From Spirochaetota bacterium (GTDB taxonomy: Bacteria > Spirochaetota > UBA4802 > UBA5550), in assembly GCA_041753395.1 (NCBI GenBank), contig JBGSUQ010000030.1, positions 10,133-74,132 on the forward strand: a stretch of DNA of 64,000 nt. The letters are read 5' to 3'. Below, one piece after another: positions 12,602 through 37,910 of this stretch. Numbering within the stretch: the stretch's first letter is position 1; each line of letters begins with the position of its first letter. The notes under the pieces are model-generated. The model did no database searches, was not told where the DNA came from, and worked only from the letters and a program-made list of their open reading frames with translations. The position numbers were made by a program, and so were the translations under genes.

Positions 12602-12622
12602 TTACTTATCAAGGAGAACAAT

Positions 12623-20062: not shown

Positions 20063-20287
20063 CTGCTCCCCCCTTGAAGGCAATGTCGCCGCGGGGCGCG
20101 GAGGACGTCGCCGCAGAACACCTCATTTAAGCATACTATGCCGTTATTATCAATTCATCATAATTAAAATAGACACGGATCCCTCGCTCTGTCAAGAATT
20201 ATCTCCGCCGTCATGTCAAAATAACATTAAGGTTGTAGCAGCCATCCTTGGGACACCGGCGCCATGGCGGCGGATCGAGCCATAAAG

Positions 20288-20307
20288 AAACCGGCCAGGA
20301 CCGGTTT
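20288..20307 (-). terminator. weak hairpin after the hox-operon response regulator
   Basis: aaaccgg-ccagga-ccggttt: 7-bp stem, followed on the minus strand by cTTTaT. Lies 29 nt after the stop at 20336. Confidence 0.4.
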
Positions 20308-20335: not shown

Positions 20336-20710
20336 TTATATATGAAGCGCTTTCTTGATTGTCTTTACCATCTGATCCGGCGATACCGGCTTCTGGAACA
20401 TACCGTTAAAACCGAGCTTATCGAGCTCGATGTTCTGTGCCGTTGCGGCACCGATGCTGCTCAGGAGGTAAATGGGCAGCTTCTTGTCCTTCTTCCTGAT
20501 TTCGTGGGCTACCCTGGATCCCGCATCAACCTGCTCCATCATCATGTCGCAGAGGACCAGGTCCGGCTTAACTGTATCGACAGCCGCGATCCCGTCCTTG
20601 CCATTGCTCGCCGTGTACGCGTCAAAGCCGCTGGCCGAGAGTACCGCCTTGATGGAATCGGTAATATCAACATCGTCATCAATCACTAATATTTTTTTCT
20701 TATCAGCCAT
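20336..20710 (-). CDS. single-domain CheY-like response regulator (RR1)
   Basis: MADKKKILVIDDD start behind AAGGAG. Phospho-acceptor Asp in LVLCDMMM, then LLSSIG and FQKPV (Lys). The ORF-track N-terminal extension overlaps hoxW. Confidence 0.88.
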   Translation of the reverse strand: MADKKKILVIDDDVDITDSIKAVLSASGFDAYTASNGKDGIAAVDTVKPDLVLCDMMMEQVDAGSRVAHEIRKKDKKLPIYLLSSIGAATAQNIELDKLGFNGMFQKPVSPDQMVKTIKKALHI

Positions 20711-20727
20711 ACAATTTCTCCTTACTG

Positions 20728-21198
20728 TTAGTTTAACGTCACCGTCTCGGACATATTCATGATATCCGTTATTTTTCCCACAAGAAACCGGTACGCCTCT
20801 TCGAGGTTCTTTTCCGCCGCCGGCGTCAGCTCCTCGACGAACTCCCAGCCGTACCCACGGATGGCCAGGACATAGGCCCGAACCGATTTCCGGTACAGCT
20901 CGTGGCACAGGGCCAGGATGGAGCCGGGCGAGACGGAATGCGTTGTGAATGTAATTTCCCCCGACGGCTTCAGCTCGGTGAAGGTGAAAGGACCTTCGCC
21001 GCTCATGGCCGCGTCTACAAAAATGACCGTGCCGCTCTCCGACACCGCCACTGCGTCCTCGATCTGGAGCTGGTAGTTGCTATCGGTGGCGACCCCCGGA
21101 AGATGCGCTTCCTCGAGGCGCTCAACCAGGGCCGCTCCCAGGCCGTCGTCCTGACGGCCCGGGTTGCCGTATCCGTATACCAGTATCCTGTTTTGCAA
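20728..21198 (-). CDS. hoxW: hydrogenase maturation endopeptidase (HoxW/HybD family)
   Basis: ILVYGYGNPGRQDDGLG motif. Lies directly downstream of the large subunit gene. Confidence 0.88.
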   Translation of the reverse strand: MQNRILVYGYGNPGRQDDGLGAALVERLEEAHLPGVATDSNYQLQIEDAVAVSESGTVIFVDAAMSGEGPFTFTELKPSGEITFTTHSVSPGSILALCHELYRKSVRAYVLAIRGYGWEFVEELTPAAEKNLEEAYRFLVGKITDIMNMSETVTLN

Positions 21199-21202
21199 AG
21201 TA

Positions 21203-22654
21203 CTATTTTCTCTTCGTGTCGATAATATCGCCCGTCGAGTCGTACATGGTCACTTCGAGGGGCATCTTGCCCAGAGCGTGCGTCGCGCAGGAGAGGCATG
21301 GATCGTAGGCCCTGATGGCTACTTCGACACTGTTCATCATTCCCTCGGTGATCTCCGACTTGCCGGTAAAAACGCTCTTTGCAACGTTGTTAACGGCGCG
21401 GTTCATCGGCTCGTTGTTGTTCGTCGTGGAGACGATCAGGTTCGCCATGACGACCTGGTCCTGGTCGTTGATCTTGTAATGGTGGAACAGGGTCCCCCGC
21501 GGCGCTTCGATCAGGCCGACGCCCTCGTTTTGTTTCTTGCCCTTGGTCACCAGGTTCTTGCCCTGGATGTCCTTGTCAAGGAGAAGTTCCTTGATCATTT
21601 CGGCGGCGTGAAGGTTCTCGATCAGGCGGGCCCAGTGCATATGCATAGACATGTTGTTCGGCTTGCCCCTGGTGTAGGCCTTGTACTGTTCGAACTCCTT
21701 CTGCGCCAGCGGCGTCGGAATGAAGTCACAGGTGTTAAGACGCGCAAGCGGCCCGACCGTGTACCATCCGTCCTTCTTGCCGATCGACTTCAGGTAGGGG
21801 AACTTCATGTAGCTCCAGTTCTTGACCTCTTCCCCGATATGGTTGTAATAATCCTGGTAATCCACGTCGTTCAGGATCTTCTTCCCTTCGGAATCAACGG
21901 CGCGCAGCACGCCGTGGTAGAGATCGAGGGCCCCGTCCTTACGCACGAGTGAAAGGTGGCTGGACGGGAATACCGCGAAATTATCGAGCATGTCAGCGTG
22001 CTTGGAATGGAAATCCTTGAAGAAATCGACCGCGGCCTGCGCCCATGCGATCATCTTGTCGCAATTAAGGGGATCGGCCCCCTTCAGGAACTCGTCCCGC
22101 TCCTCGTTCGACAGGCTCTTGTTGATGCCGCCGGGTATCGCTCCGGTGCCGTGGATCTTCTTGCCCGCGGTCGCCCGGATGACTTCCTGGCCGAACTTCC
22201 TCATCAGCACCGCCTGTACGGCCAGGTCCTTGTGCTCGAGGACCACGCCGATGACGTTGCGGATCGCCGGGTCGCCGTCGATGCCGAAGAGCAGATCAGG
22301 CGATGCCAGGTGGAAAAAGTGCAGGGTGTGGGACTGGAACATCTGCCCGTAGTGCATCAGCCGCCGCATCTTTTCGCCCGTGGGGGTGAGCCCGTCGCCG
22401 GTCCCCGCGCCCACGATCACGTCAACGGCCTTCGCCGCTGCCAGGTGGTGGCTCACCGGGCAGATGCCGCACAGGCGCTGCACCAGCACCGGCATCTCCC
22501 AGTAGGGTCTTCCCTGAACAAAACGCTCGAAACCGCGGAACTCGACGATATGGAGCCGCGACTGGGCCACGTTGTTGCTGTCATCGAGCTGGATGGTCAC
22601 CTTGCCATGTCCCTCGACTCGTGTTATCGGTTCTATCGTTATTTTTCTAGCCAT
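21203..22654 (-). CDS. hoxH: [NiFe] hydrogenase large subunit, NAD-coupled bidirectional (group 3d-like)
   Basis: RVEGHGKVTI, N-terminal RLCGICPVSH, C-terminal DPCLSCATH followed by a 24-aa tail for proteolytic processing. Context with hoxF/U/Y. Confidence 0.93.
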   Translation of the reverse strand: MARKITIEPITRVEGHGKVTIQLDDSNNVAQSRLHIVEFRGFERFVQGRPYWEMPVLVQRLCGICPVSHHLAAAKAVDVIVGAGTGDGLTPTGEKMRRLMHYGQMFQSHTLHFFHLASPDLLFGIDGDPAIRNVIGVVLEHKDLAVQAVLMRKFGQEVIRATAGKKIHGTGAIPGGINKSLSNEERDEFLKGADPLNCDKMIAWAQAAVDFFKDFHSKHADMLDNFAVFPSSHLSLVRKDGALDLYHGVLRAVDSEGKKILNDVDYQDYYNHIGEEVKNWSYMKFPYLKSIGKKDGWYTVGPLARLNTCDFIPTPLAQKEFEQYKAYTRGKPNNMSMHMHWARLIENLHAAEMIKELLLDKDIQGKNLVTKGKKQNEGVGLIEAPRGTLFHHYKINDQDQVVMANLIVSTTNNNEPMNRAVNNVAKSVFTGKSEITEGMMNSVEVAIRAYDPCLSCATHALGKMPLEVTMYDSTGDIIDTKRK

Positions 22655-22719
22655 AATATTCTCCTGAAATTTTCCTTAAAAACACCATAGCGGGGTTTTT
22701 AAGTGGCCGTTTACAACGG

Positions 22720-23259
22720 CTAATCATACTTTAACACCTCATACGGCAAGTTGAGCGGCTTCCCGGACAGGAGCGCCGTTAATGCCTCCCATATCAGGTC
22801 CGCACGCGGCGGGCACCCGGGAAGGAAATAGTCGATCTTCACGATCTCGTGGAGTGGATAGACCCTGTCAAGGATCATCGGGATCTCCGGATCATTGGGG
22901 ATGATCTTGTCGTCAACCGTGACGCAGTTCAGATAAGCCTCTTCCAGGCACTCCTTGATGGGGATGCCGTTCCGCATCGCCGGCAGGCCGCCCATAATAG
23001 CGCACTCTCCCAGGGAGATGAGGATTTTGCAGTGCTTCCGGAACTCGATCAGGTTCTCGACGTTTTCGCTGTTACAGCAGCCCCCTTCAATGATGCCGAT
23101 GTCGCACTCCTTGGTGAACGTCTTGATGTCATCCACCGGCGACTTGTTGAACTCCACCAGATCGATGAGTTGTAGTATTCTATCGTCAATGTCAAGCAGA
23201 GACATATGGCACCCAAAACAACCCGCCAGCGACGCGGTAGCCACAACTGGTTTACTCAT
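22720..23259 (-). CDS. hoxY: [NiFe] hydrogenase small subunit (HoxY-type)
   Basis: 179 aa with ASLAGCFGCHMSLLD and GGCCNS...GCPP cluster ligands. Confidence 0.9.
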   Translation of the reverse strand: MSKPVVATASLAGCFGCHMSLLDIDDRILQLIDLVEFNKSPVDDIKTFTKECDIGIIEGGCCNSENVENLIEFRKHCKILISLGECAIMGGLPAMRNGIPIKECLEEAYLNCVTVDDKIIPNDPEIPMILDRVYPLHEIVKIDYFLPGCPPRADLIWEALTALLSGKPLNLPYEVLKYD

Positions 23260-23282
23260 TATAGTTTCCTCCGATCATTTCA

Positions 23283-23975
23283 TTACTTCTGAATTTCGCT
23301 GCCGATGGGCGCTTTGTCATACTTGCGTTTGCCGATGGGCACAATAAAACCGATTTCCTTCTTCAAGATAGCGCCCACCGGGCACTGATCCATTGCCTTC
23401 TTCGCCAGGTCGTCCGGCATCTTCGCCTCCAGTTCACGGTCGGCAACGATGGTGGAATGTCCCGAACGATCCGTCATCGCGAATATATGCCTGCCGTCCT
23501 TCGTGGTGACGCCCCGGACGCAGCGCCGGCACTGGATGCACCGGTTCGTGTCGATCATGATCTTCGTGTAGGTCGCATCCATCGCACGCTTCGGGAACAG
23601 GTAAGGAAAGCGCGGCGCCAGGAGCTGGTACCGGTACCCCAGGGCCTGGAGCTCGCAGTTCCCGCTCTTTTCGCAGGTGGGGCACATGTGGTTCCCTTCA
23701 ACGAAGAGCATCTCCACCAGGGCCTTACGCATGTCCTCCAGTTCCGGTATCGCATTTTCCACGATCATCCCTTCCGAGATGGGGGTCGTGCAGGCGGCCA
23801 TGTTTCTGCCGCCGACCTTGACCGTGCAGATGCGGCAGATACCGGCCGGCTTCAGGCCCTCGTACCAGCAGAGGACCGGAATGTATACGCCGCTGTCGCG
23901 GGCCGCCTCGACAATGGTCTGGCCCGCCTTGCCGGTGCACTCTTTTCCGTCTATTTCAAATGTTATCTTGCTCAT
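23283..23975 (-). CDS. hoxU: diaphorase Fe-S subunit HoxU (NuoG N-terminal-like)
   Basis: 2Fe-2S motif C-x10-C-x2-C, HMCPTCEKSGNCELQ, CIQCRRCVR and QCPVGA. Confidence 0.9.
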   Translation of the reverse strand: MSKITFEIDGKECTGKAGQTIVEAARDSGVYIPVLCWYEGLKPAGICRICTVKVGGRNMAACTTPISEGMIVENAIPELEDMRKALVEMLFVEGNHMCPTCEKSGNCELQALGYRYQLLAPRFPYLFPKRAMDATYTKIMIDTNRCIQCRRCVRGVTTKDGRHIFAMTDRSGHSTIVADRELEAKMPDDLAKKAMDQCPVGAILKKEIGFIVPIGKRKYDKAPIGSEIQK

Positions 23976-23976
23976 A

Positions 23977-25788
23977 TTAATGTCCCTCGATGTTTGAATT
24001 TCTTCCCGCGGTCTTGCAGTACTCCTGTACCGCCCTGTTCATGTCGAATTCGGTCACATAATCCACACCCTTCTGCAGCTTTGCTTCGTATGCGTCGCGG
24101 AAATTCTCGATGGTGGTCGAGATCGGGTTCGGTGACGTCTGCCCCAGGCCGCAGCGGCTCGTGGCCCTGACAATGGTACACCAGTCTGCGAGTTCCTTGA
24201 GGTCGGACCCGGTGCCCCTGCCCGCCATGATCTTTTCAAGGCGCTGCTTGAGGAGCACATTACCTGCCCTGCACGGTGTGCACCATCCGCACGATTCCTC
24301 AACGAAGAAATCCATGAAGTTGTGAACTATTTTCAGCAGGTCGGTATTGGGTCCGATGATAATGATGGAGCCGCCGGTGGGGAGTTCCTCGAAGGAAAGT
24401 TTTTCCCCGAAGTCCTTTTTACCCACACACTTGCCTGAAGGACCACCCACCTGGACCGCCACGGCATCGGAGCCGCCGGCATCATCGAGGAGGCTCTGCA
24501 GAGTGGTGCCGAACTCAACTTCATAAATGCCCGGCTTAGAACAGTCGCCGGATATGGACAGGACCTTAGTGCCGTGGGACTGGAAGGTCCCCATCCTGGC
24601 GAACCACTCGCCGCCCTGGACCATGATACGCGCCGCCGCGCAGAGACTTTCCACGTTATTGACCGTCGTGGGGTATCCCAGATAACCATTCTGCGCAGGG
24701 AACGGCGGCCGGTTCCGCGGCTCGCCCCGTTTTCCTTCAGCGGATTCTATCAGAGCCGATTCCTCGCCGCATATATAGGCGCCGGCGCCGAGCTTTATTG
24801 TAATGTCAAAATTAAAACCTTTTTTCCCCGCGACATTCTTGCCCATGAGATTGTTGTTCCTCATTGTTTCAAGGACGCTCTGGAGATACTTCAGCAGGTA
24901 TTCGTATTCAGCCCTCAGGTAGAGGACCCCTTCTTCGGCACCGATAGCGTATCCCGCCACGGTCATACCGTCAAAGAGCATCTGCGGCAATTCAGTCAAT
25001 ATGACGCGGTCCTTGAAGGTACCCGGTTCGCCTTCATCGGCGTTGCAGACCACATACATTTTCTTGCCATTAGAATTGCGGGTAAATTCCCATTTCATAC
25101 CGGTGGGGAACCCTGCGCCGCCCCGGCCGCGAAGGTTCGATTTTTTAATTTCCTCGATGACCGCTTCCGGCGTCATGCCCACGGCTTTCTTGATCCCGGA
25201 GCCGGTCTCGTAAGGTGCGAATATCACCGGACCTTTTTTCTGGATGTTGTTCTTAACCATGGCACCGATCAAAGCGGACTGGTTCTGTCCATCCCCGGTC
25301 TCCTTAACCATGGTCTTGACATCTTTCCCGGCCTTCATCTGGAACACGAGGTCTTTCGCTTTTTCCGGCGTAAGGTTCGTGAATACAATGCCGTTGATCA
25401 GTGCCGCCGGCTCCTGGTCGTTCATACCGATATCGGAAGTGTCATACAGACCGATCTGACCGTCGAATGTCGTTACTCCGAAGGAACACCCCGCCGCCTG
25501 CTCAAAGGCTTTGGCCACAGCATCTCTCCCTTTCATTTCAGCCACGGCGCTGTTGTTCAGGTAAACCGTGTATTTTCCCCTGGGCTCTTTTGAAAAGAAA
25601 TGATAGAAAGAAACAACACCATCAACGTCAACCTTAGAAACACCCAGGTTAATGGCGATGGCGGCTGATGCCTCATCCGAAACGAAGCCAAATTCACCCT
25701 GCACTTCGCGGATAATATCGAGCATCATGGTAGCGTCTTTGCCATGCTTCTTCACAGCTCTTGTGACTACATCACCTATACTGCCCAT
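23977..25788 (-). CDS. hoxF: diaphorase NAD/FMN subunit HoxF (NuoE-like + NuoF fusion)
   Basis: GRGGAGFPTGMKWEF, GEPGTFKD, ESCGWCTPCR. The N-terminal thioredoxin-like domain lacks the four Cys ligands. Confidence 0.92.
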   Translation of the reverse strand: MGSIGDVVTRAVKKHGKDATMMLDIIREVQGEFGFVSDEASAAIAINLGVSKVDVDGVVSFYHFFSKEPRGKYTVYLNNSAVAEMKGRDAVAKAFEQAAGCSFGVTTFDGQIGLYDTSDIGMNDQEPAALINGIVFTNLTPEKAKDLVFQMKAGKDVKTMVKETGDGQNQSALIGAMVKNNIQKKGPVIFAPYETGSGIKKAVGMTPEAVIEEIKKSNLRGRGGAGFPTGMKWEFTRNSNGKKMYVVCNADEGEPGTFKDRVILTELPQMLFDGMTVAGYAIGAEEGVLYLRAEYEYLLKYLQSVLETMRNNNLMGKNVAGKKGFNFDITIKLGAGAYICGEESALIESAEGKRGEPRNRPPFPAQNGYLGYPTTVNNVESLCAAARIMVQGGEWFARMGTFQSHGTKVLSISGDCSKPGIYEVEFGTTLQSLLDDAGGSDAVAVQVGGPSGKCVGKKDFGEKLSFEELPTGGSIIIIGPNTDLLKIVHNFMDFFVEESCGWCTPCRAGNVLLKQRLEKIMAGRGTGSDLKELADWCTIVRATSRCGLGQTSPNPISTTIENFRDAYEAKLQKGVDYVTEFDMNRAVQEYCKTAGRNSNIEGH

Positions 25789-26216
25789 ATTCCCTCTTTT
25801 TTATTTAATTTTTTATCATCTTTACAAACAACTCATAAATAAACAATTATAATAATATGTTTATTTTTATATTGCAAATGTTCATACTCTAATAAAAGAA
25901 ATTGTTATATTAAATATTATTATACGATATTTTGTTAGAAAAGCATCACTAAATATTGGGATAATTTGTTAATAGGTTGGTATAAATACAATAATAATTT
26001 TTGGTCGATGGTAAAAAAAAATAGCAGTTTAATGAAATATGTCACGGTTACTTTTTGATTATGGTCGGAACTTATATTACTCAATGATAATTATTATAGA
26101 TAGTATATTCCTTATAAAATTAAATTTTTGTATTCAGTTTCTTATAATTACCGATGTTCAAATCAATTCTTACAACAATAGATGTGGTATTTGACCGACT
26201 CTATGCCCTTTGTATA
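25789..26216 (-). promoter_or_regulatory. 428-bp very AT-rich intergenic block upstream of hoxF (promoter/regulatory region, elements undefined)
   Basis: Hand counts of 60-nt lines give about 13% G+C, against about 55-63% in the flanks. No ORF of 60 aa or more. Confidence 0.6.
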
Positions 26217-26591
26217 TCAAATTCCCAGAGATCTCTTGATGGATGATATCAGCTGCTCAGGATGGACAGGCTTCTGAAAAACGCCTTTGAAGCCAAGATT
26301 TCCGGTATCGATATTCGCCGCGGTTGCGTCGCCGATACTACTGAGAAGGAAGATGGGAGCGGCAACGTCCTTTTTCATCAGTTCCTCCGCAACCTTCATG
26401 CCCGCGTCAATCCGTTCCATCATCATGTCGCACAGGATCAGGTCGGGTTTTTTTTGAATCGCAGCATCAATTCCATCATGTCCGCTCATAGCCGTGGCGA
26501 CATCAAAACCGTTTTTTTCTAGAATGACTTTAATTGAATCGACAATATCGATATCATCGTCAATTACCAGTACCAGTTTTTTATCAGACAT
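26217..26591 (-). CDS. single-domain CheY-like response regulator (RR2, paralog of RR1)
   Basis: MSDKKLVLVIDDD start behind AAGGAGG. Same 124-aa length as RR1 and 75/124 identical in my ungapped hand alignment. Confidence 0.88.
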   Translation of the reverse strand: MSDKKLVLVIDDDIDIVDSIKVILEKNGFDVATAMSGHDGIDAAIQKKPDLILCDMMMERIDAGMKVAEELMKKDVAAPIFLLSSIGDATAANIDTGNLGFKGVFQKPVHPEQLISSIKRSLGI

Positions 26592-26658
26592 AACAAATCC
26601 TCCTTTGGACCGTAATAAGCTGCAAGTATGATTGCGCACAAATGTCAATTGCCGGGTA

Positions 26659-27132
26659 TCAACCACCCTGGGTCTGCGGAAACGCCGTGTTCGAGTAGAG
26701 ATACTCAACTTTTTCCTTGTGCTTCAACTCCTCGTTGGCCATTTTCAAAAGCATTTCCTTCACTTCACCGTCGGGCTGGATATCAGACAGACCCTTGTAA
26801 AAATTATAGGAATTCAACTCCCGGTGGGCGGCCACAAGGTATACGTCCTTCGTGTCAAGGTTCTTCTCTATGTCCGGCTTGTCCAGATACTGTGCGACTT
26901 TATAATCAATGACTTCCGTCATTCTCAACGCGCCGGAGCCGGTTTTCCCGCTTTTATATGATACGAGAAATTCCTTGTGTTTTTTCTCCTGATCGGCGAG
27001 AAACTTTAACGCGTCTTTTGCCGTCGGGTCGGTGACGGTGTTTCCCAGCTTCGCATAAAAATCGAAAGCCTCTTCCTCCCTCATTATCGCCTTATCAATG
27101 AGATTCTCAAGTGTTACATTTTCCATACGCAC
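26659..27132 (-). CDS. rubrerythrin/ferritin-like diiron four-helix protein (no rubredoxin domain)
   Basis: Two E...ExxH halves (EEEAFDFY...QEKKH; HRELNSYNFY...EELKH). Confidence 0.7.
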   Translation of the reverse strand: MRMENVTLENLIDKAIMREEEAFDFYAKLGNTVTDPTAKDALKFLADQEKKHKEFLVSYKSGKTGSGALRMTEVIDYKVAQYLDKPDIEKNLDTKDVYLVAAHRELNSYNFYKGLSDIQPDGEVKEMLLKMANEELKHKEKVEYLYSNTAFPQTQGG

Positions 27133-27227
27133 CGTCTCCCTTTTGTCATAATATCCGCATCCGCATGTGGAGAAAGAAAAGCGCCAGGACGCCGGGCGTT
27201 CCCGGAGTCCTGGCGTTACATCGTCTA

Positions 27228-28505
27228 TTATGCGTTTTTACCTTTAGGTGCCTTGTAAACCATGGCAATCAGAAAACCAACAGCTAAAAGACCGGCTGCG
27301 ATATACAGCGCCTGGGGTTTAAATGCCTCGAAAACAAGGGGGCCGATAATACCGGCGGCGCTCCATGCAGTGAGCATGAATCCATAGACCTTGCCGATAT
27401 AGGCCGGGCCGAAGGAGTCAGCTGCAAAAGCAGGCATGGTGGCGAAGCCGCCGCCGTAGCATGCGAGCAGGTAGCAGGACACTACGATGAAGAGCGTGTA
27501 ACTGGGCACATAGCCCATGGCAACGAGCAGATACAAAACGGACTGGGTTGCGAACATGATCATGAAGACCATCTTGCGGCCGATATTGTCTGAAAGTTTT
27601 GCCCAGAAGAGCCTTCCAAGACCGTTAAATATGGCGGCAATAGCTACAACGGTTCCGCCGGCAGCTGCAATAACTGCTGCATCGACTACATCGGGGTTTG
27701 AAAAAGTAAAAGTTTTCTGAGCCAGCGGAGAGTGCTGGGAAATTAGTCCAAGACCGGCTGAAACGTTGAGGCAGAGCATCGCCCACAGCATCCACCACTG
27801 AGGCCTTTTTACCGCTTCGCCGAACTGGAAGGAATCAGCAGCAGAAACGGATGTCTTGGCAGGGGTAAACCCGGCAGGCAGCCATCCCTTTGGCGGGTTC
27901 TTGAACAGCTGGGCCGCGCCCACAACAAGAACAAGAAAAATAACGCCCCAGATATACCAGGTCATGGCCACACCGGTAGAGGTGACCTTGCCGGCTTCGT
28001 CAACCACATTGTAAGCCTTGATCATGGCAGGTGCAATTTTTCCCATGAAGAATGCGCCGGCGCCGAAACCCATAACGGCCAGGCCGGTAACCAAGCCGCG
28101 CTTGTCAGGGAACCATTGGATCAGGGTCGCGATAGGAGTAACATATCCGAAACCATTACCAAGGGCCGCGATTACGCCAAAGCCGATATAGAGAAGTGCA
28201 ATGTTTCCTGTCTGGGCAGCATAACCTGCGACCAGGGTTCCAATACCGAAGAGAATACCGCCGGTGGTAGCCACAAAACGGGGGCCTTTTTTAAGCACCA
28301 GCGTTCCGCCAAAGGAGGCTGCAAGTCCAATGATGAGCATCAGCAGCATGAAAGTATACTGCACCGTTTTTCCGTCCCAGCCCCACATGTCCATCAATGG
28401 CAGTTTAAAAACAGACCATGCGTACACGGTACCGAGGCAGAGCTGTATAACAACAGCCGCGATGGCAATCAGCCATCTTTTTGATTCCAGGTTCTCGTTA
28501 CTCAT
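27228..28505 (-). CDS. MFS transporter, oxalate/formate antiporter (OFA) family
   Basis: 12-TM MFS with an OFA-type N-terminus (RWLIAIAAVVIQLCLGTVYAWSVF). Sits directly downstream of the fdh genes. Confidence 0.85.
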   Translation of the reverse strand: MSNENLESKRWLIAIAAVVIQLCLGTVYAWSVFKLPLMDMWGWDGKTVQYTFMLLMLIIGLAASFGGTLVLKKGPRFVATTGGILFGIGTLVAGYAAQTGNIALLYIGFGVIAALGNGFGYVTPIATLIQWFPDKRGLVTGLAVMGFGAGAFFMGKIAPAMIKAYNVVDEAGKVTSTGVAMTWYIWGVIFLVLVVGAAQLFKNPPKGWLPAGFTPAKTSVSAADSFQFGEAVKRPQWWMLWAMLCLNVSAGLGLISQHSPLAQKTFTFSNPDVVDAAVIAAAGGTVVAIAAIFNGLGRLFWAKLSDNIGRKMVFMIMFATQSVLYLLVAMGYVPSYTLFIVVSCYLLACYGGGFATMPAFAADSFGPAYIGKVYGFMLTAWSAAGIIGPLVFEAFKPQALYIAAGLLAVGFLIAMVYKAPKGKNA

Positions 28506-28564
28506 ATTTCCTCCAAATTTTTTCAGATCACCTATTATAATAAGTGTTATTAATGTTTATAACA

Positions 28565-30394
28565 TCAATGCCCGCCGCCGGCATAATACCGGCTCAGCGA
28601 TCTGTCGCATTGCGGACATTTGTGTTTCGAATCACAGTGTTGCAGAAACTCTTTCCTGAAGTATTTCAGCATCGTGGTGATGGGCATGATCGGCGACTGT
28701 CCGAGGGCGCACAGCGACGCCTTCTTCATGATCGTGGCCTTTTCCATCATCAGATCGATATCCCCCGGCATCGCGGTCCGGGACGCGAACTTCTTCGCAA
28801 AATGGTGCAGATGCGCGGTGCCAACGCGGCAGGGAACGCACTGGCCGCACGACTCGTGCTCAAAGAAGCTCAGTATCTGCAGAAGAAAATCAACGGCGCA
28901 TGTATTTTCGTCGCATACCAGCACAACGCCGGAACCGAGGGTGACTCCATTCTTGGTCGGCTGGTCGATATCAAGGGGAAGCTCCATCAGGTCCTTGCCG
29001 AGGATCCCGCCGGCGCTGCCGCCCACCTGCGCGAACTTGAATTTAGAGCCCTTGGCCATGCCTTTCCCGTACACATTGATTATTTCCTTGAGGGTAGCCC
29101 CCATGGGCAGTTCCACCAGCCCCGTGCGGGTGAGTTTCCCGGACAGGCAGTAGAGCTTGGTGCCGGAACAGTTGGTCGGACCGACCGATTTATACCAGTC
29201 AGCGCCCTTCTCGATGATCATCGGCACCGACATGAGGGTTTCCACATTATTGACGTTGGAGGGGAGATCGTTGAAGCCAGCGCCGCCGGGGAATGGCGGC
29301 TTGAAGCGGGGATATCCCCTCTTCCCTTCCATCGAGTTTATCAGCGAGGTCTCCTCGCCGCAGACGTAAGCCCCGCCGCCTTCCTTAATCATTATGTCAA
29401 AATCGAATTTTGACCCGAACAGGCCCTTGCCGAGCATCCCCTTTGCACGCGCCTGGTCGATGGCCGCCTGGAGCCGCTCGATCGAACGCCGGTATTCGCC
29501 CCTGATATAGATATATCCCAGGGTCGCGCCGATTGCATAACCGCAGATGGCCATCCCTTCCAGGAGAAGGTGGGGATTCTCTTCCATGAGAATCCTGTCC
29601 TTGAAGGTGCCGGGCTCTCCCTCGTCGGCATTGCATATCACGTATTTCTGCACCGGTCCCTTGGCGACAAAAGTCCATTTCATACCGGCCGGGAAGCCTG
29701 CGCCACCTCTGCCGCGGAGCCCTGAATCCTTGACGATATCAATGATCTTCGACACTTCCATTGTAACGGTCTTCTTCAAGGCCCCGTATCCGCCGGAGGA
29801 AACATAGCTGTCGATCTTCAGGGGATCAACCACACCGATATTGGCGATGAGGCGCTTCGTCTGCTTCGGATCGTCGATAATGCAGGCCTTTCCCTCAACT
29901 TCATCGCCGCACTCTTCGAAAAGAGAGGGCTTCTTTTTCTTGTAGGAATTCAGTATCGACACGATCCGTTTCGGGGTGAGGTTCCCGTGTATGTCGTAAT
30001 TGATCATCATGGCCGGCGCCACGGAGCAGACCCCGAGGCATTCACATTTTTCAATGTAAAAAAGCCCGTCTTTGGTCGCTTCGCCGATACCGATGCCAAG
30101 GTGCTTCTGTACCACGTCGAAGACCGAGGTCGCCCCCATAACGTGACACGGACCCGACTTGCATATCCGGATGAGGAATTTAGCCCTCGGCTTGGTCTTG
30201 AACATCGTATAGAACCCGACAAAACCGGCCACGGCGCTTTCGGGGATGTTCATCTCTTCCGCGACGGAACGCAGTGTATTCACATCCAGCTGGTTTTTGC
30301 CAGACTGGACCTCCAGGTCGCGCAGGATCAGCATAAGGTGTTCCGACGTCTTCCCGTATTTCTGAATTGTTTTTGTTATAGTTTCCTGTTTCAT
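28565..30394 (-). CDS. fdhB: NAD-dependent formate dehydrogenase beta/gamma fusion (NuoE + NuoF-like)
   Basis: Intact 2Fe-2S motif CKSGPC...CLGVC, plus GRGGAGFPAGMKWTF, GEPGTFKD and ESCGQCVPCR. Confidence 0.9.
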   Translation of the reverse strand: MKQETITKTIQKYGKTSEHLMLILRDLEVQSGKNQLDVNTLRSVAEEMNIPESAVAGFVGFYTMFKTKPRAKFLIRICKSGPCHVMGATSVFDVVQKHLGIGIGEATKDGLFYIEKCECLGVCSVAPAMMINYDIHGNLTPKRIVSILNSYKKKKPSLFEECGDEVEGKACIIDDPKQTKRLIANIGVVDPLKIDSYVSSGGYGALKKTVTMEVSKIIDIVKDSGLRGRGGAGFPAGMKWTFVAKGPVQKYVICNADEGEPGTFKDRILMEENPHLLLEGMAICGYAIGATLGYIYIRGEYRRSIERLQAAIDQARAKGMLGKGLFGSKFDFDIMIKEGGGAYVCGEETSLINSMEGKRGYPRFKPPFPGGAGFNDLPSNVNNVETLMSVPMIIEKGADWYKSVGPTNCSGTKLYCLSGKLTRTGLVELPMGATLKEIINVYGKGMAKGSKFKFAQVGGSAGGILGKDLMELPLDIDQPTKNGVTLGSGVVLVCDENTCAVDFLLQILSFFEHESCGQCVPCRVGTAHLHHFAKKFASRTAMPGDIDLMMEKATIMKKASLCALGQSPIMPITTMLKYFRKEFLQHCDSKHKCPQCDRSLSRYYAGGGH

Positions 30395-30408
30395 TTCATT
30401 ACCCCCGC

Positions 30409-33111
30409 CTACATGTTAATCTTTTCGATTTTACACGCACAGACCTTGTACTCAGGCATCTTGCATGTTGGATCGAGGGCGTCTATTGTCAGCTTGTTAG
30501 CAGCCGCCTCGACAAAGTGGAAGGGGATGAAGGCCACGTTCGGCATCGGGCGGTCGCTGATCCGCGCCTTTATCCGTATGCTACCCCTGCGCGTCGAGAC
30601 CGACACCAGCTCTCCGTCCTTGATGTTGTAATTACTCGCCTCATTCGGATTCATTTCAACATAATTCTCGTTTACGGTCTCCACAAGGATGCGCGAATTC
30701 CTGCTCATGGTTCCGGTGTGGAAATGCTCCAGTATCCGCCCCGTGGTCAATATGACCGGGTATTCCGGGTCCACTTCCTCCGCCGGCGGCGTGTACTCTA
30801 TGGCGCTCATCAGGCCCAGGCCACGGGAAAACTTTTCCCTGTGCAGATACTGCGTTCCCGGATGGGTCTCGTTGGGACACGGCCATTGTATGAGCTCTTT
30901 TTCGAGCCGCTCATAGGTGATGCCCGCGTACGACGGAGTCACGGTGCGCACTTCGTCGAAGATGTCCCGCGCCGACTTGTAATCCCATGGCACGCCCATC
31001 CTGTTTGCAATCTGTGTCAATATCCACCAGTCCTCTCGGGAATCGCCAGCCGGTTCGACCACCCGGTGCATCAGCTGCACCCGGCGCTCCGTATTGCTTA
31101 CGGTCCCCTCTTTTTCCAGGAATGCGAAGCCGGGGAGCACCACGTCGGCATACTGCGCTGTTTCAGTCATCATAATGTCCTGCACCACAACAAAATCGAG
31201 CTTCTCCATCGCCTCGATCACGTGGTGCTGGTTGGGATCGGACATGACCGGGTTTTCACCCAGAACGTAAAGTGCCTTGACGTCGCCGGCAATGGCCCCG
31301 TTAAGGGCCTCGACGATGGTCAGGCCCGGCTTGGCCGAAAGCTCGAAGGCGACCTTCCATGCTTCCTTGAACTTCTTCTTGTTGTCCTCGCTTCCCACCG
31401 GCTGGTAGGCCGGGTAGACCGCGTTGAGGGCTCCCATGTCGCAGGCGCCCTGGACGTTGCTCTGGCCGCGGAGCGGGTTCACGCCGCCGCCGGCCACGCC
31501 GATGTTGCCGAGAAGCATCTGGAGATTGGCGCAGCACTTAACGCCGTTGACCCCTGACTTGAACTGCGTAATACCCATGCAGTAGTAGAGGGCCATCGGC
31601 TTTGCTTCCGCCAGGATCCGCGCGGCCTTTACGATCAGCGACGGATCTTCAATGCCGCAGATGGAAGCTACGTGCTCCGGGGTATACTTTTCCAGAGTCT
31701 TTTTCAGCTCATCAAAACCCTCGCACCGGCTCGTCACATATTCCGCGTCGTGAAGGTTTTCCTTGAGAATAACATGGGCCAGTCCGTTCAGGATGGCGAT
31801 GTTGGTGCCCGGCTTTATCTGCAGAAATACATCTGCGTATTTAGCAAGTTCAATCCTTCTCGGGTCAACCACAACAAGCTTCTTCTTATTGAGGATGACC
31901 GCTTTCTTGATCATGGACCCGATGACAGGGTGGTTCTCGGTAGTGTTAGATCCGATTACGAGAAACGCCTCCGAAAGGGGGATCTCCCTGATCGAGTTAG
32001 TCATTGCTCCTGAACCGAGTGTTGCCGCCAGACCGGCGACAGTGGAGCTGTGGCACAATCGGGCGCAGTGATCGACATTGTTTGTTCCGATCACCGCCCT
32101 CATGAATTTCTGCATTAGGTAGTTTTCTTCATTAGTACACTTTGCCGAGGAAAAGGCCATGATGGAATCAGGGCCGCTCTGCGACTTGATATCCGACAAC
32201 CGGGAAGCCACAAGACCGAGGGCCTCGTCCCAGCTTGCCTCCTCGAATTTACCATTCTTCTTGATCAGCGGCTTCGTAAGGCGCTTGTCGCTCTGCACGA
32301 AATCAAAGCCGAAACGGCCCTTAATGCAGAGATGGCCTTCGTTGGGCCCGTTATCGTTGCCCATGGCCTTGACGAGTTGTCCTTCCTTGTTTGTATAAAA
32401 ATCAATCTGACACCCGACCCCGCAGTATATGCAGACGCTCGTTTCTTTCTTCAATTCCCACGCCTGGCCCCTGCCCAGTACGGTCTGGAACGAAAGGGCG
32501 CCCGTGGGGCAGAGCTGAACGCAGGTGCCGCACTGGACACAGGTGGAATCGCCGATAGGCGCGTACGCATCCGATGTCAGGTCGGTCGATGATCCCCTGC
32601 CGGTGAAGTCCCACACGCTGTTCATCTGTATTTCACTGCAGGCCTTGACGCAGCGACCGCAGAGGATGCAGCGGTTTTCATTGCGGCGGAGGCCCTTGCT
32701 CGAAACGGTATCCACCATACGCTCGCGGTGGGGGAACGCGCCGGTCGGCTCCGGCACCTCATAGCGGTGGCAGAGCCGCTGAAGCTCGCATTCGCCGTTC
32801 CACTCGCAGTAGAGGCAGTTATGGTCTCCTTCGGAGAGAAGCATTTCGAGAAGGCTCCTGCGTACCTGACGGATCTCGTCATCATCAGTATCGATTTTCA
32901 TCCCATTTGCCGCGGGTTCTGTACAGGACGTCTTTAATGCGCTATCGTTTATGCGCACCATGCATATCCTGCAGGCGCCTGTCTTGGTGATTCGTGGGTG
33001 GAAGCAGAGGTAAGGAATATCAATATTATTTTCCCTTGCGATTTCAAGAATCGTCTGGCCTTTTTTGCCGTTTACCTGCTTCCCGTCAATGGTTAGCTGG
33101 ATAGTATCCAT
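30409..33111 (-). CDS. fdhA: formate dehydrogenase alpha subunit (NuoG-like Fe-S N-terminus + molybdopterin domain), Cys type
   Basis: 900 aa with N-terminal 2Fe-2S/4Fe-4S motifs, Mo-bisPGD domain CIYCGVGC, and active-site region HCARLCHSSTVAG (Cys, no in-frame TGA). AAGGAG RBS. Confidence 0.9.
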   Translation of the reverse strand: MDTIQLTIDGKQVNGKKGQTILEIARENNIDIPYLCFHPRITKTGACRICMVRINDSALKTSCTEPAANGMKIDTDDDEIRQVRRSLLEMLLSEGDHNCLYCEWNGECELQRLCHRYEVPEPTGAFPHRERMVDTVSSKGLRRNENRCILCGRCVKACSEIQMNSVWDFTGRGSSTDLTSDAYAPIGDSTCVQCGTCVQLCPTGALSFQTVLGRGQAWELKKETSVCIYCGVGCQIDFYTNKEGQLVKAMGNDNGPNEGHLCIKGRFGFDFVQSDKRLTKPLIKKNGKFEEASWDEALGLVASRLSDIKSQSGPDSIMAFSSAKCTNEENYLMQKFMRAVIGTNNVDHCARLCHSSTVAGLAATLGSGAMTNSIREIPLSEAFLVIGSNTTENHPVIGSMIKKAVILNKKKLVVVDPRRIELAKYADVFLQIKPGTNIAILNGLAHVILKENLHDAEYVTSRCEGFDELKKTLEKYTPEHVASICGIEDPSLIVKAARILAEAKPMALYYCMGITQFKSGVNGVKCCANLQMLLGNIGVAGGGVNPLRGQSNVQGACDMGALNAVYPAYQPVGSEDNKKKFKEAWKVAFELSAKPGLTIVEALNGAIAGDVKALYVLGENPVMSDPNQHHVIEAMEKLDFVVVQDIMMTETAQYADVVLPGFAFLEKEGTVSNTERRVQLMHRVVEPAGDSREDWWILTQIANRMGVPWDYKSARDIFDEVRTVTPSYAGITYERLEKELIQWPCPNETHPGTQYLHREKFSRGLGLMSAIEYTPPAEEVDPEYPVILTTGRILEHFHTGTMSRNSRILVETVNENYVEMNPNEASNYNIKDGELVSVSTRRGSIRIKARISDRPMPNVAFIPFHFVEAAANKLTIDALDPTCKMPEYKVCACKIEKINM

Positions 33112-33568
33112 CGGAAACTCCTTTTTTCGTGATTCCTTTACCTATGGTAATATATTGTTGGTATTGGTTTGATTATGGCTGCATAATTCGTTTTTGATGT
33201 ATATAACAGTGGTGAGATTCTCATAGTATTATTAGTTAATAAAATTTAATAATACAGCTTTTTGCTATATTGTTTTTTGTTAATATTTAATCACTTATTT
33301 AGGGGATACTGTCATAAATGGCCGAAAAAAAACAAGATTAATTTATTAATAGAAATCAAAAAATGAGACAGAATAATGAATCACCATGAGGATTTCTCTA
33401 CAATCTAAAATAATTGAATAATTTATATTTTAATCTGATCTTCCCGATATTCTTGTGAAAAAAGGCAGTATATATGGAGGGATTAACTGCTGGATCAATC
33501 CGGGTTCAGAGAAAAATGAGTATAATCTCAAAACAGGACAGGGGGGATGAAGTATTGACTGATAACAA
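33112..33568 (-). promoter_or_regulatory. 457-bp intergenic region with AT-rich core upstream of fdhA
   Basis: Core about 33125-33470 at roughly 20-33% G+C on hand-counted lines. No credible ORF. Confidence 0.6.
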
Positions 33569-35842
33569 TCAGCATGACGGGTCAAGGAGACTTTTCGCCA
33601 CCGCGAGCTGCCCCAGGGCGATGCAGCCATCATTGCAGGGGACCTGTTTGTGGGTATATACCGTGAAGCCTTTTCCGCGCAGAACATCGATGATCCCCTC
33701 CAGGAGGACCCGGTTGTGAAAAACCCCGCCGCTCAGAGCAGCATCATTAAGGCCGGTCGCCGTGCGTATCCTGTCAGCAACCGCGGCTGTGGTGTGGATT
33801 ATGGCCTGGTGGAACGCGGCAGCGATATCATCCGCGGCAACGCCTTTCTCAATGAGGGAGACGATATGGGCAATCAGTTCGTCCGTACCGATAACTATCG
33901 GTCCATCAGCTGAAAAAGGCACGATATAAGGCCGCTCCGGTGCCCTGCCCCGCATGGCTGCCTCCTCCAGAAGCTGGGCAGCTTCCGCCTCGGCGCTCAC
34001 TGAGCGGGCTATGCCCAGGATGGCCGCCACGCCGTCAAATATCCGTCCGATACTGCAGGTTAGGGGCGAATTGATGTTCTTCTTTATTATCTCGATAACG
34101 CCGGTTGACGATTCATTGCGCTCCATCACCGGATAGTTATCGCCATACCGCTGATAAAGAAGGGACACGCCGATTTTCCACACATCCTTGATGGCGCTCT
34201 CTCCACCGGGCAGGGAAAACTCGCTAAAATGTGCCGCCCGCTCGAAACCGCCGCGGCTGGCCAGGAGGAATTCACTCCCCCACAGGGTGCTGTCGGTGCC
34301 GTAGCCCGTGCCATCAAATGCAATGCCGATCACCGGGCCCTCAAGGCCATTTTCCTCCATGACCGCCGCTATATGGGCGTGGTGATGCTGAACCTCAACC
34401 AGGCGCTTCCCCCGTGAAGCGAGTTCCTCAGCGTGCTGCCGGGTGAGATACGCCGGGTGCGCATCAGCCACTATCACCTCTGGATCGGCGTCGAATATCC
34501 TGATGAAGTGGTCCACTGTACGCTGGAACACCTCGTAGGTAAGCGGGTCCGCCATATCGCCCAGATACTGGCTCATGATGATGAAATTTTTTCTGGCAAT
34601 GGCAAAGCTGTTTTTTAAATCTCCGCCGGTGGCAAGCATGGTGACCGGTGAATTGCCCGATAAAAAGGGGACCGGGATGTACCCCCTCGACCTGCGTATG
34701 AAGTAGGGTTTTTTATTGACCACGTAGAGGACGCTGTCGTCCCCCTGGCCGATGATCTCCCTGTTATAGGTCACGAAATAATCGGCTATCCGCCCCAGGC
34801 GGTCGAACACCGTGTCGTCGCGGTACTCGATCGGCTCGTCCGAAACATTGCCGCTGGTCATCACCATGACCATATCGGGATCAATGATAAAGAGGTGGTG
34901 CTGGAACGGTGCGTAGGGGAGCATGATCCCCAGGTAGGTAAGGCCCGGCGCCACCTGCCGGCTGAGATCATGCCGCGTCTCCCTGAGGAGCACGATGGGC
35001 CGCTCCTTCGACATCAGCAGATCGCGCTCTTCCGGACCGATCTCAAGGAACCTGCCGGCTGCATCGGCAGATCCCGCCATGACGGCAAAGGGCTTGAAAG
35101 GGCGCCGCTTTCTCTTCCTGAGCTCCATGACGGCGGTATCGTTCCGGGCGTCGACTGCGAGATGGTACCCCCCTATACCCTTGATGGCCAGGACCGCCCC
35201 CTCTTTCAGGAGGGCTACGGTCCTTTCAGCCACGGTCTCATTCTCCGATTCAATCAGATCCTTTCTACTATTATAAAGAGTTATACGTGGTCCGCAGACA
35301 GGACACGCATTGGGCTGGGAGTGAAAGCGCCGGTCCATCGGTTCGGTGTATTCCGCCAGGCACCGTTCACACATCGGGAAAGGGTCCATAGCGGTGTTTT
35401 TTCTGTCATAAGGGATATCACGGACGATACTGAAGCGCGGTCCGCAGTTGATGCAGGTTATGAAGGGATAGTGGTGACGCCGGTCAGACGGGTCATTGAA
35501 CTCTTCGTGGCACCGGTCGCACAGGGCTACATCGGGCGAATAGAAAGCGAGACGCTCCGCTGTCACCACGCTCCGGTCGATACTGAAATCCGCCCGGCCC
35601 GAGGGCGCCGACCCGCTGACATCCACCGACATGATCAGGGCCAGGGGCGGTGCGGTTGCCGTCAGTTCCCGGAGGAAGATATCCAGCTCATCGCTTCCGC
35701 CATCGGCATGGATGATGACCCCTTCTGTGTCATTGAGGACACTTCCGGTGATATGGTGCCGATGCGCCAGCTGGTACACGAAGGGACGAAACCCGACGCC
35801 CTGAACGATCCCTTTTATCCTGATGTTCAGCGATTTTTTCAT
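33569..35842 (-). CDS. hypF: carbamoyltransferase HypF
   Basis: Acylphosphatase start IRIKGIVQGVGFRPFVY, four CxxC zinc-finger motifs, and YrdC-like and Kae1-like domains. Confidence 0.93.
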   Translation of the reverse strand: MKKSLNIRIKGIVQGVGFRPFVYQLAHRHHITGSVLNDTEGVIIHADGGSDELDIFLRELTATAPPLALIMSVDVSGSAPSGRADFSIDRSVVTAERLAFYSPDVALCDRCHEEFNDPSDRRHHYPFITCINCGPRFSIVRDIPYDRKNTAMDPFPMCERCLAEYTEPMDRRFHSQPNACPVCGPRITLYNSRKDLIESENETVAERTVALLKEGAVLAIKGIGGYHLAVDARNDTAVMELRKRKRRPFKPFAVMAGSADAAGRFLEIGPEERDLLMSKERPIVLLRETRHDLSRQVAPGLTYLGIMLPYAPFQHHLFIIDPDMVMVMTSGNVSDEPIEYRDDTVFDRLGRIADYFVTYNREIIGQGDDSVLYVVNKKPYFIRRSRGYIPVPFLSGNSPVTMLATGGDLKNSFAIARKNFIIMSQYLGDMADPLTYEVFQRTVDHFIRIFDADPEVIVADAHPAYLTRQHAEELASRGKRLVEVQHHHAHIAAVMEENGLEGPVIGIAFDGTGYGTDSTLWGSEFLLASRGGFERAAHFSEFSLPGGESAIKDVWKIGVSLLYQRYGDNYPVMERNESSTGVIEIIKKNINSPLTCSIGRIFDGVAAILGIARSVSAEAEAAQLLEEAAMRGRAPERPYIVPFSADGPIVIGTDELIAHIVSLIEKGVAADDIAAAFHQAIIHTTAAVADRIRTATGLNDAALSGGVFHNRVLLEGIIDVLRGKGFTVYTHKQVPCNDGCIALGQLAVAKSLLDPSC

Positions 35843-37160: not shown

Positions 37161-37241
37161 AAAAAAAGTATAGACAGTTTTATCAACACCTGTCAAAAAG
37201 GATGTGATAGTATGATCGTGGAAAGAGGAAGGGGACTTCAC

Positions 37242-37910
37242 ATGGAAATCAAAATCCTGAAAGACATTCTGCAGCTAAATAAGAACGCAGCCGCCGAGGT
37301 CAAAGACCTTTTAAAGAAGAAAAAGGTATACATGATCGACATGATGAGCTCGCCGGGTTCCGGAAAGACAACACTGAACGACAAGCTGATTGGCGCGCTT
37401 AAAACTAAATACCGCATCGCAGTCATAGAGGGAGATATAAAGACAACCAAGGACGCCGAGCGGCTTGCCTGCCACAATATTCCGATCTTCCAGATCGAAA
37501 CTGACCGCTTTGGCGGCGACTGCCACCTGGAAAGCACCTGGATAAAAAAATGTCTGGACCAGTTCGACCTTGACAACCTGGACCTGGTCATCGTGGAAAA
37601 CATAGGCAACCTGGTGTGCCCCGCCGAATTCCAGCTGGGCGACGATGAGCGGATCGTGGTCCTCAGCATTACCGAAGGAGAGGACAAGCCGGCCAAGTAT
37701 CCCCTCATGTTTAATTCTTCGGACACCATGGTACTGAATAAAATGGACCTCCTCCCGCACCTCGATTACAGCGTGGACGAGTTGATGGACAACCTGAAAA
37801 AGGTTAACCCGAAGATCAGGGTTTTCCAGGTGAGCGCAAAAACCGGCGACGGTATGGGGCCATTACTGGAGCACATCAGTGGCAATATCGAAAAAAAAAT
37901 CCGGGCCTGA
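37242..37910 (+). CDS. hypB: hydrogenase nickel-insertion GTPase HypB
   Basis: GSGKTTL P-loop, GGDCHLE, ENIGNLVCPAEF, NKMDL. Start at the ATG behind GAGGAAGGGG. No His-rich or CxxCGC N-terminus. Confidence 0.92.
   Translation: MEIKILKDILQLNKNAAAEVKDLLKKKKVYMIDMMSSPGSGKTTLNDKLIGALKTKYRIAVIEGDIKTTKDAERLACHNIPIFQIETDRFGGDCHLESTWIKKCLDQFDLDNLDLVIVENIGNLVCPAEFQLGDDERIVVLSITEGEDKPAKYPLMFNSSDTMVLNKMDLLPHLDYSVDELMDNLKKVNPKIRVFQVSAKTGDGMGPLLEHISGNIEKKIRA

Follow-up and report, generated by a model that had tools for sequence, protein, structure and literature searches.

Within a 64,000-nt window of a Spirochaetota genome (contig JBGSUQ010000030.1; "the window" is this whole stretch), we characterized a gene cluster at positions 20336-33568 in which an operon for a predicted NAD-linked formate dehydrogenase (FDH; FdhAB) lies directly upstream of an operon for a predicted NAD-linked [NiFe] hydrogenase (HoxFUYHW). 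We consider it probable that these are two self-sufficient, soluble NAD(H)-linked enzymes, encoded in adjacent and probably co-induced operons, that act as parallel valves for NADH. This interpretation draws on the make-up of both enzymes, on a promoter-region element that the two operons share, and on their recurrent proximity in related genomes. Herein G000 denotes the genome under study (4.9 Mb, 96% complete), and other G numbers denote genomes of the same order.

The cluster holds eleven genes, all on the minus strand and in two blocks, as defined from open reading frames (ORFs) with Pfam/NCBIfam support. In transcription order, the upstream block comprises fdhA, fdhB, a major facilitator superfamily (MFS) carrier, a diiron protein and the receiver gene RR2, which together make up a five-gene FDH cassette, and the downstream block comprises hoxF, hoxU, hoxY, hoxH, hoxW and a second receiver gene, RR1, closed by a hairpin. 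A 428-nt AT-rich gap separates the two blocks, while intergenic gaps within each block measure 1-95 nt and most genes are preceded by Shine-Dalgarno-like sequences. An earlier reading made from the sequence alone (hereafter the sequence-only reading) had listed these genes with their coordinates and strand, placed AT-rich blocks ahead of fdhA and hoxF, and seen a hairpin after RR1; all of this was borne out, the genes by Pfam/NCBIfam matches and the AT-rich blocks (25789-26216 and 33112-33568) by a G+C content of 21-31% vs ~55% in the genes. The features are, in transcription order:

33252-33344, minus strand: promoter-region element ahead of fdhA, lying within the AT-rich block 33112-33568

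30409-33111, minus strand: fdhA, 900 aa, NuoG-like N-terminus followed by a Mo/W-bis(pyranopterin guanine dinucleotide) domain

28565-30394, minus strand: fdhB, NuoE+NuoF fusion with flavin mononucleotide (FMN)/NADH motifs

27228-28505, minus strand: MFS transporter, SfMCT-like, 425 aa

26659-27132, minus strand: ferritin-like diiron-carboxylate protein, 157 aa (Pfam Rubrerythrin, 50 bits)

26217-26591, minus strand: RR2, CheY-like receiver, 124 aa from an inner ATG (Pfam Response_reg, 72 bits)

25903-26003, minus strand: promoter-region element ahead of hoxF, lying within the AT-rich block 25789-26216

23977-25788, minus strand: hoxF, NuoE-like + NuoF fusion

23283-23975, minus strand: hoxU, 230 aa, Fe-S subunit resembling the NuoG N-terminus (Pfam Fer2_4, NADH-G_4Fe-4S_3)

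22720-23259, minus strand: hoxY, 179 aa, NuoB-like small subunit (Pfam Oxidored_q6, 98 bits)

21203-22654, minus strand: hoxH, [NiFe] large subunit

20728-21198, minus strand: hoxW, maturation endopeptidase (TIGR00072, 71 bits vs a cut-off of 47)

20336-20710, minus strand: RR1, CheY-like receiver, 124 aa (Pfam Response_reg, 72 bits)

20288-20307, minus strand: terminator-like hairpin after RR1, read from the sequence (7-bp stem AAACCGG/CCGGTTT, 6-nt loop, T-rich tail)

The enzyme classes given here rest on rankings against solved structures. By this measure FdhAB is a predicted two-subunit, FdsA-type, NAD-linked Mo/W formate dehydrogenase. FdhA scores well above the cut-off of the Fdh-alpha equivalog model (TIGR01591, 865 bits vs 666), and its solved relatives over the full length, including the NuoG-like N-terminus, are the Methylorubrum extorquens FoDH1 alpha subunit (7VW6_A/7E5Z_A, 707 bits) and Rhodobacter capsulatus FdsA (6TG9_A, 681 bits). 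Its Pfam domains (Fer2_4, NADH-G_4Fe-4S_3, two Fer4 and Molybdop_Fe4S4) and its active-site residues (Cys353-His354 in CARLCH, Arg548 in RGQSNVQG) agree with the NuoG-like, Mo-binding subunit with an active-site cysteine that had been proposed, and share the Cys/Sec-His pair and Arg of FoDH1 (7E5Z/7VW6) and R. capsulatus FdsGBAD (6TG9). FdhB is likewise the NuoE+NuoF fusion that had been described, with all four 2Fe-2S ligands present (C78, C83, C119, C123), and the GRGGAGF, GEPG and ESCGxCxPCR motifs claimed for both flavoproteins were located in FdhB as well as in HoxF. FoDH1, too, is made of two subunits, and in its beta subunit NuoE- and NuoF-type parts are fused into one flavoprotein. The present enzyme differs from FoDH1 and Fds in that orthologs of its FdhA in relatives are selenoproteins and in that its cassette lacks fdsD and fdsC/FdhD, adding instead the MFS carrier, the diiron protein and a receiver; one FdhD is encoded elsewhere, on contig C25, and the FdsD/FdsC accessory genes mark the Fds subtype (Rhodobacter, Cupriavidus) rather than every NAD-linked FDH.

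For the hydrogenase, the best solved relative of HoxH is the large subunit of an NAD-reducing enzyme (5XF9_D, 542 bits, E=1e-161), followed by the large subunit of the bifurcating NiFe-HydABCSL enzyme (7T2R_D, 484 bits), Mvh/Vhu-type subunits (5ODC_F and 9SW2_F, 391-410 bits) and 9SFI_g (378 bits), while sulfhydrogenase-type and F420-reducing (Frh) enzymes scored ~84-105 bits. This ranking places HoxH inside the NAD(P)-linked group 3, as the sequence-only reading had it. The Ni-binding motifs RLCGIC (residue 60) and DPCLSCATH (residue 451) are present, and the protein extends 24 residues beyond the last His. HoxF, whose best solved relative is 5XF9_A (392 bits, residues 20-596 covered), carries Pfam Complex1_51K and NADH_4Fe-4S domains along with the FMN/NADH motifs; its NuoE-like part has a single Cys and therefore no 2Fe-2S site. 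The best full-length match of HoxU is the NCBIfam HoxU model NF005745 (188 bits, below its cut-off). The short HoxY and HoxU, the HoxW protease and the HoxH extension all fit the type of the soluble NAD-reducing hydrogenases (SH), and HoxFUYHW is thus a predicted SH-type, group 3d-like, NAD-linked [NiFe] hydrogenase. It shares with the SH of Hydrogenophilus thermoluteolus (5XF9) and Cupriavidus necator the HoxFUYH set, a HoxF fusion without 2Fe-2S ligands, and the traits just named, and it differs from them in its host, an uncultured and apparently anaerobic spirochaete with a Wood-Ljungdahl cluster, and in its operon, which ends with a CheY-like receiver and in which no HoxI or HoxE was seen.

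Taken as predicted, FdhAB would link CO2/formate to NAD+/NADH through its own NuoE+NuoF flavoprotein, and the HoxFU diaphorase would link H+/H2 to the same couple. With an unbroken electron path between active site and FMN in each enzyme, no physical contact would be needed and the two would meet only via the free NAD(H) pool. NADH would be made when H2 or formate is high and could be disposed of when H2 or formate is very low, and if the two enzymes ran in opposite directions, their net reaction would be formate <-> H2 + CO2, which is close to equilibrium. A flow from H2 via NADH and formate to formyl-tetrahydrofolate would also be possible, because G000 holds a complete Wood-Ljungdahl cluster (contig C8:14000-34000: Fhs, FolD, AcsV-like, AcsD, carbon monoxide dehydrogenase, acetyl-CoA synthase alpha/beta, AcsC). 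Formate/H2 coupling through NAD(H), which the sequence-only reading had put forward, is therefore best described as plausible. A stronger version, in which the operons form one co-regulated, NAD(H)-mediated H2:CO2/formate route under the shared element and the receivers, replacing complexes of the type of the hydrogen-dependent CO2 reductase (HDCR) or Fdh-Hyd complexes as the way into or out of the methyl branch, is possible and is offered tentatively.

The best evidence in our analysis for co-regulation is the promoter-region element. When the AT-rich blocks of genus members were compared pair by pair, an AT-rich element of ~100 nt emerged upstream of hoxF and again upstream of fdhA, conserved in genus relatives and made up of boxes in a fixed order: an A-tract with TTGTTTTT, TATCCCA, GTGATG, TAACAAAAA, GTATAA and TATAAC. 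A search profile built solely from the hoxF-upstream copies of five other genomes found two significant sites in the 4.9-Mb genome, the one ahead of hoxF (E=4e-12) and the one ahead of fdhA (E=3e-8), with the next match at E=1.4. The hoxF and fdhA copies are 57% identical with the boxes conserved, vs 75-80% for orthologous copies; the duplication therefore appears old and the boxes kept. On the question of an fdhA-type origin, the single element of G016 gave near-equal identities (64-68% vs 60-63%). RNAalifold predicted no pairs in the shared element, which is therefore read as acting at the DNA level, and GTGATG and GTATAA(T), 18-19 nt apart, could be a −35/−10 pair. Consensus promoter and terminator scans were no more informative than AT-rich DNA would give, and order-wide counts of shared 8-/10-mers upstream of hoxF (46 sequences) and fdhA (15) gave nothing above shuffled controls. 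Co-induction would follow from both operons starting behind a paralogous element and ending with a paralogous CheY-like receiver, and the two operons are probably induced together, which lends support to the co-regulation that had been suggested from the juxtaposition.

The proximity of the two operons was assessed in 122 genomes of the order, with FdhA orthologs taken at 71% identity or more. HoxH orthologs were found in 79 genomes and FdhA orthologs in 41, with both present in 31; in 14 of these the genes lie on different contigs, where their distance cannot be judged, and in 17 they share a contig. The gene starts fall within 18.3 kb in 14/17 one-contig genomes, the other three being at 23 kb, 67 kb and 2.9 Mb. 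Such proximity, for which chance would account in roughly 1% per genome, recurs in four families and at least five arrangements: hypF-[FDH cassette]-[hox] in G000, G003 and G015; [hox]-[FDH cassette] in G036, G021 and G024; divergent in G083, G061, G062 and G091; a condensed fdhA-fdhB-Rbr-hoxF in G121 and locus L038; and fdhAB, a short spacer and hox in G082 and G111. These layouts are scattered over the FdhA and HoxH trees and sisters differ (adjacent in G121, 2.9 Mb apart in G118), which implies that proximity has been kept or regained through many rearrangements. Adjacency is thus conserved in relatives, as the sequence-only reading would have it.

Several observations weigh against our interpretation, the first of them energetic and metabolic. 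The potentials of NAD (about −320 mV), H+/H2 (−414 mV) and CO2/formate (about −430 mV) imply that both enzymes would run easily towards NADH and would need very low product levels to make H2 or formate, NADH-driven production of either being endergonic under standard conditions. A common NAD pool is a property of every pair of NAD-linked enzymes and is no direct sign of coupling. Acetyl-CoA synthase was found in 51/122 genomes of the order and in 15/17 of this genus (G000 included), and the FDH cassette is present in 18/51 genomes with it vs 23/71 without. We accordingly rejected the idea that FdhAB is a dedicated Wood-Ljungdahl FDH, the cassette being as frequent without acetyl-CoA synthase as with it.

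Comparative genomics adds further points on the same side. There are 48 genomes with Hox that lack the FDH cassette and 10 with the FDH that lack Hox, and any excess of genomes with both falls short of significance (odds ratio 2.1, p=0.11, related genomes being non-independent). The trees built on FdhA and on HoxH conflict with each other. In the former, the G000 clade is placed with G036 and G021, which belong to other genera/families, and not with the same-genus G013 and G008, while the HoxH tree, unlike that of FdhA, follows the genus. The hypF-hoxF junction, at which the FDH cassette sits in G000, G003 and G015, is moreover a variable slot in the genus, empty (435 nt) in G016 and filled with unrelated cargo in G007 (Usp-Usp-Na/H exchanger-TrkA_N) and G011 (an unrelated 459-aa gene). 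In G014 (L014 14258-14920), one of the 10 genomes with the FDH alone, the FDH cassette is followed by a hoxW fragment (residues 67-148), RR1 and a chemotaxis receptor with hoxFUYH gone, and the fragment and RR1 there are the relic of a hox deletion. The sequence-only reading had also suggested co-evolution of the operons; this we rejected on the discordant trees, and together with the separable cassettes and the variable slot they point instead to a mobile FDH cassette. One could go further and take the adjacency for a by-product of such a cassette landing in a variable AT-rich slot, with the two enzymes serving unrelated needs and no net formate/H2 flux. We judge this unlikely, given the proximity in 14/17 testable genomes and its recurrence across families and arrangements far above the chance level, and given that the element was duplicated before both operons and has long been kept.

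The gene hypF (33569-35842, minus strand; [NiFe] maturation carbamoyltransferase with Pfam HypF_C_2, zf-HYPF and Acylphosphatase) directly abuts hoxF in G016 and in loci L018-L021, and it is the ancestral upstream neighbour of hoxF. The Na/H exchanger in the G007 slot is split into two ORFs. In G000, a larger [NiFe] island encloses the cluster, with hypA, hypD, hypE and hypC at 10153-12859, hypF as given above and hypB at 37212-37910. Outside the order, 47 HoxF-centred loci (Bacteroidales, Chloroflexota, Aminicenantes and others) hold hoxFUYHW without this FDH; the gene order is the same in most of them (L048-L094), and HoxH identity is ~70-81% for metagenome-assembled genomes of Bacteroidales, Chloroflexota, Aminicenantes and Chitinivibrionales, a very high value across phyla that suggests lateral spread. 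The Bacteroidales hox loci have a hypF homologue divergently upstream. In G091 (L103, 8451-12865) a second, more distant FdhB/FdhA pair (38%/46% identity) separates the FDH cassette from the hox operon, placing two FDHs beside one hydrogenase, and the HoxH ortholog of G117 (C150:3851-5299) has an in-frame TAG, a possible sign of a pseudogene or of misassembly.

A different objection concerns the electron carrier, namely that one or both enzymes are electron-confurcating/bifurcating and use NADH and reduced ferredoxin jointly, so that coupling would not run through NAD alone. The closest solved relatives of FdhB, a further point against our interpretation, are B subunits of bifurcating (Bfu-type) enzymes: its NuoF part scores 400-444 bits against these (7T2R_B, 9BOV_B, 9N5U_B, 8OH5_B and 8A6T_B, with 7T2R_B on top at 444) vs 284-322 bits against the beta subunits of NAD-linked FDHs, so that in this part it stands nearer to HydB-type subunits than to the beta subunits of FoDH1 or Fds. 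The second rank of 7T2R_D for HoxH, a terminal Cys cluster in FdhB (C587, C593, C596) and the description of the Syntrophobacter fumaroxidans enzymes as confurcating (PMC5947623) point the same way. Neither flavoprotein, however, has the C-terminal 2x[4Fe-4S] domain of B subunits: a Pfam family scan gave no Fer4 match in FdhB or HoxF, FdhB ends right after its NuoF 4Fe-4S domain, with an alignment to 7T2R_B that stops at chain residue 533/597 and a query that finishes 14 residues on, and alignments of HoxF to B subunits agree. Unlike HydABC, NiFe-HydABCSL and Hyl-Fdh, the enzymes here also have no separate HydC-like subunit, the NuoE-like part being fused; HoxF matches the SH-type HoxF over its full length and its NuoE-like domain has lost the 2Fe-2S ligands, and HoxU is of the short SH type rather than long and HydA-like. 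We thus consider bifurcation quite improbable as an account of the cluster and take both enzymes to be probably of a simple NAD(H)-linked kind, with dependence on ferredoxin as a minority possibility. That FdhAB and HoxFUYH instead form one physical complex, a soluble formate hydrogenlyase with direct Fe-S electron transfer and no free NAD(H), is very improbable: gene adjacency and the condensed layout of G121 and L038 speak for it, and against it stand the complete NuoEF(G)-type module of each enzyme, the separate or distant (up to 2.9 Mb) cassettes of relatives, and the want of HycB-like connector genes in the cluster and of an [FeFe] hydrogenase in the genome.

The remaining genes of the cluster bear on what the two operons may do beside their enzymes. 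The MFS carrier had been labelled a member of the oxalate/formate antiporter (OFA) family and a formate-type transporter, and neither label was sustained. It scores below both oxalate/formate cut-offs (TIGR00890, 206 vs 375; TIGR04259, 170 vs 335) and passes the SfMCT (L-lactate) equivalog NF049980 (372 vs 320 bits); among solved structures it matches SfMCT (6G9X) at 136 bits vs 87 bits for OxlT (8HPJ). Its residues Y121, N294 and R298 align with Y119, N276 and R280 of SfMCT, the L-lactate/H+ symporter of S. fumaroxidans (6G9X/6HCL), in which Tyr/Asn/Arg bind the carboxylate and for which no formate transport is reported (PMC6573034); with these residues kept, the protein reads as a monocarboxylate carrier. 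The relationship is distant (~30% identity judged by eye from the alignment). The carrier probably moves a monocarboxylate, for which homology points to a lactate-type substrate, and formate is suggested by its position in the FDH cassette alone, a place that is kept in most relatives.

The diiron ferritin-like protein proposed earlier was upheld, with a rubrerythrin-type domain, no rubredoxin domain and 2FZF and 1VJX (TM1526) as solved relatives, and it would probably protect against oxidants. RR1 and RR2 are paralogous (~55-60% identity in cross-matches) and have neither an output nor a DNA-binding domain; almost every Spirochaetota locus has an RR1 homologue after hoxW, and no locus of another phylum does. 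A methyl-accepting chemotaxis protein gene with its own promoter-like site (17393-20083, minus strand; 896 aa, Pfam MCPsignal and HAMP) is the conserved downstream neighbour of RR1 in the genus. RR1 and the adjoining chemotaxis receptor make it conceivable that H2 metabolism and taxis are linked.

The active site of FdhA records a further change within the order. All 41/41 FdhA ortholog matches, from 40 other genomes, hold an in-frame TGA, which in nine loci checked sits at the active-site codon aligned to Cys353 in the same motif. In an alignment with eight relatives, these have TGA where G000 has TGC, a difference of one base, and the bases downstream are identical. The Cys353 codon (TGC, 32053-32055) lies near the 5' end of a hairpin resembling a selenocysteine insertion sequence (SECIS) at 32000-32058 on the minus strand, which is intact and scores 31.6 bits against Rfam SECIS_3 vs 34.2 bits for the G003 ortholog, which has TGA; it was the only match in an Rfam scan of 16-38 kb, which found no riboswitch or other RNA. 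A separate contig assembly from metagenome run X1 (depth ~22), probably the source sample, also reads TGC with no variant listed, although rare variants may be hidden in such a contig. The stretch was detected in a hot-springs metagenome run, its probable source, and in a biofilm run from that study as well. G000 keeps tRNA-Sec, SelA and a second, selenocysteine-containing FdhBA pair on contig C25. The codon is thus a recent switch from selenocysteine (Sec) to cysteine that is specific to this enzyme, and the hairpin a relic of selenocysteine decoding. A selenocysteine FDH and a cysteine FDH are also found together in the spirochaete Treponema primitia (PMC3892789, PMC3428693), to which G000 is alike in holding a Cys form and a Sec paralogue; the T. 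primitia pair, however, consists of long-diverged FdhF-type paralogues, whereas here one base of the codon separates the Cys form from its Sec orthologs and the SECIS-like hairpin is retained.

Acetyl-CoA synthase itself showed variation in the order. The open frame that holds it measures ~735-800 aa in this genus and ~1065-1186 aa in G082, G056, G075, G083, G025, G027 and others, and in those other families the synthase may be fused to a further domain.

Both enzymes belong to known families, and an FDH-Hox neighbourhood has already been published for S. fumaroxidans, in which the cytoplasmic Fdh1 (Sfum_2703-06) and Hox (Sfum_2712-16) are encoded close together and are both abundant (PMC5947623), including during syntrophic growth (PMC5947623, PMC3570798). 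Our cluster resembles this case in pairing a cytoplasmic NuoEFG-type FDH with a Hox hydrogenase a few genes apart, a likeness of arrangement. It differs in phylum, in the confurcation proposed for the S. fumaroxidans enzymes, and in its shared promoter element and receiver genes, which are not reported there. Two further systems share the overall chemistry open to the pair, formate <-> H2 + CO2. In the HDCR of Acetobacterium woodii and Thermoanaerobacter kivui, FdhF2 is wired to an [FeFe] hydrogenase via HycB filaments, and in the formate hydrogenlyase (FHL) of E. coli, FdhH is wired to a membrane-bound group 4 [NiFe] hydrogenase. The hallmarks of the former (HydA2, and HycB-type connectors beside FdhF2) were not found in the cluster, and the 96% complete G000 genome gave no Fe_hyd_lg_C match, that is, no [FeFe] hydrogenase; nor were group 4 membrane subunits found, the sole membrane protein of the cluster being the MFS carrier. 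The arrangement thus differs from membrane FHL and filamentous HDCR, as had been proposed, and since connector subunits, membrane subunits and an [FeFe] hydrogenase are all lacking, any coupling must use a diffusible cofactor.

Whether anaerobes can live syntrophically or as acetogens is decided by how they balance H2, formate and NADH. Should the two operons indeed be co-induced and their enzymes exchange electrons through NAD(H), they would offer a route of simple, modular design in place of HDCR, FHL and bifurcating Fdh-Hyd complexes, and this route would belong to a never-cultured spirochaete lineage. The ~100-nt element that is unique to both operons offers a handle for testing their co-regulation, and the near-identical Sec/Cys FDH pair would make the cost of selenium loss comparable in one protein background.

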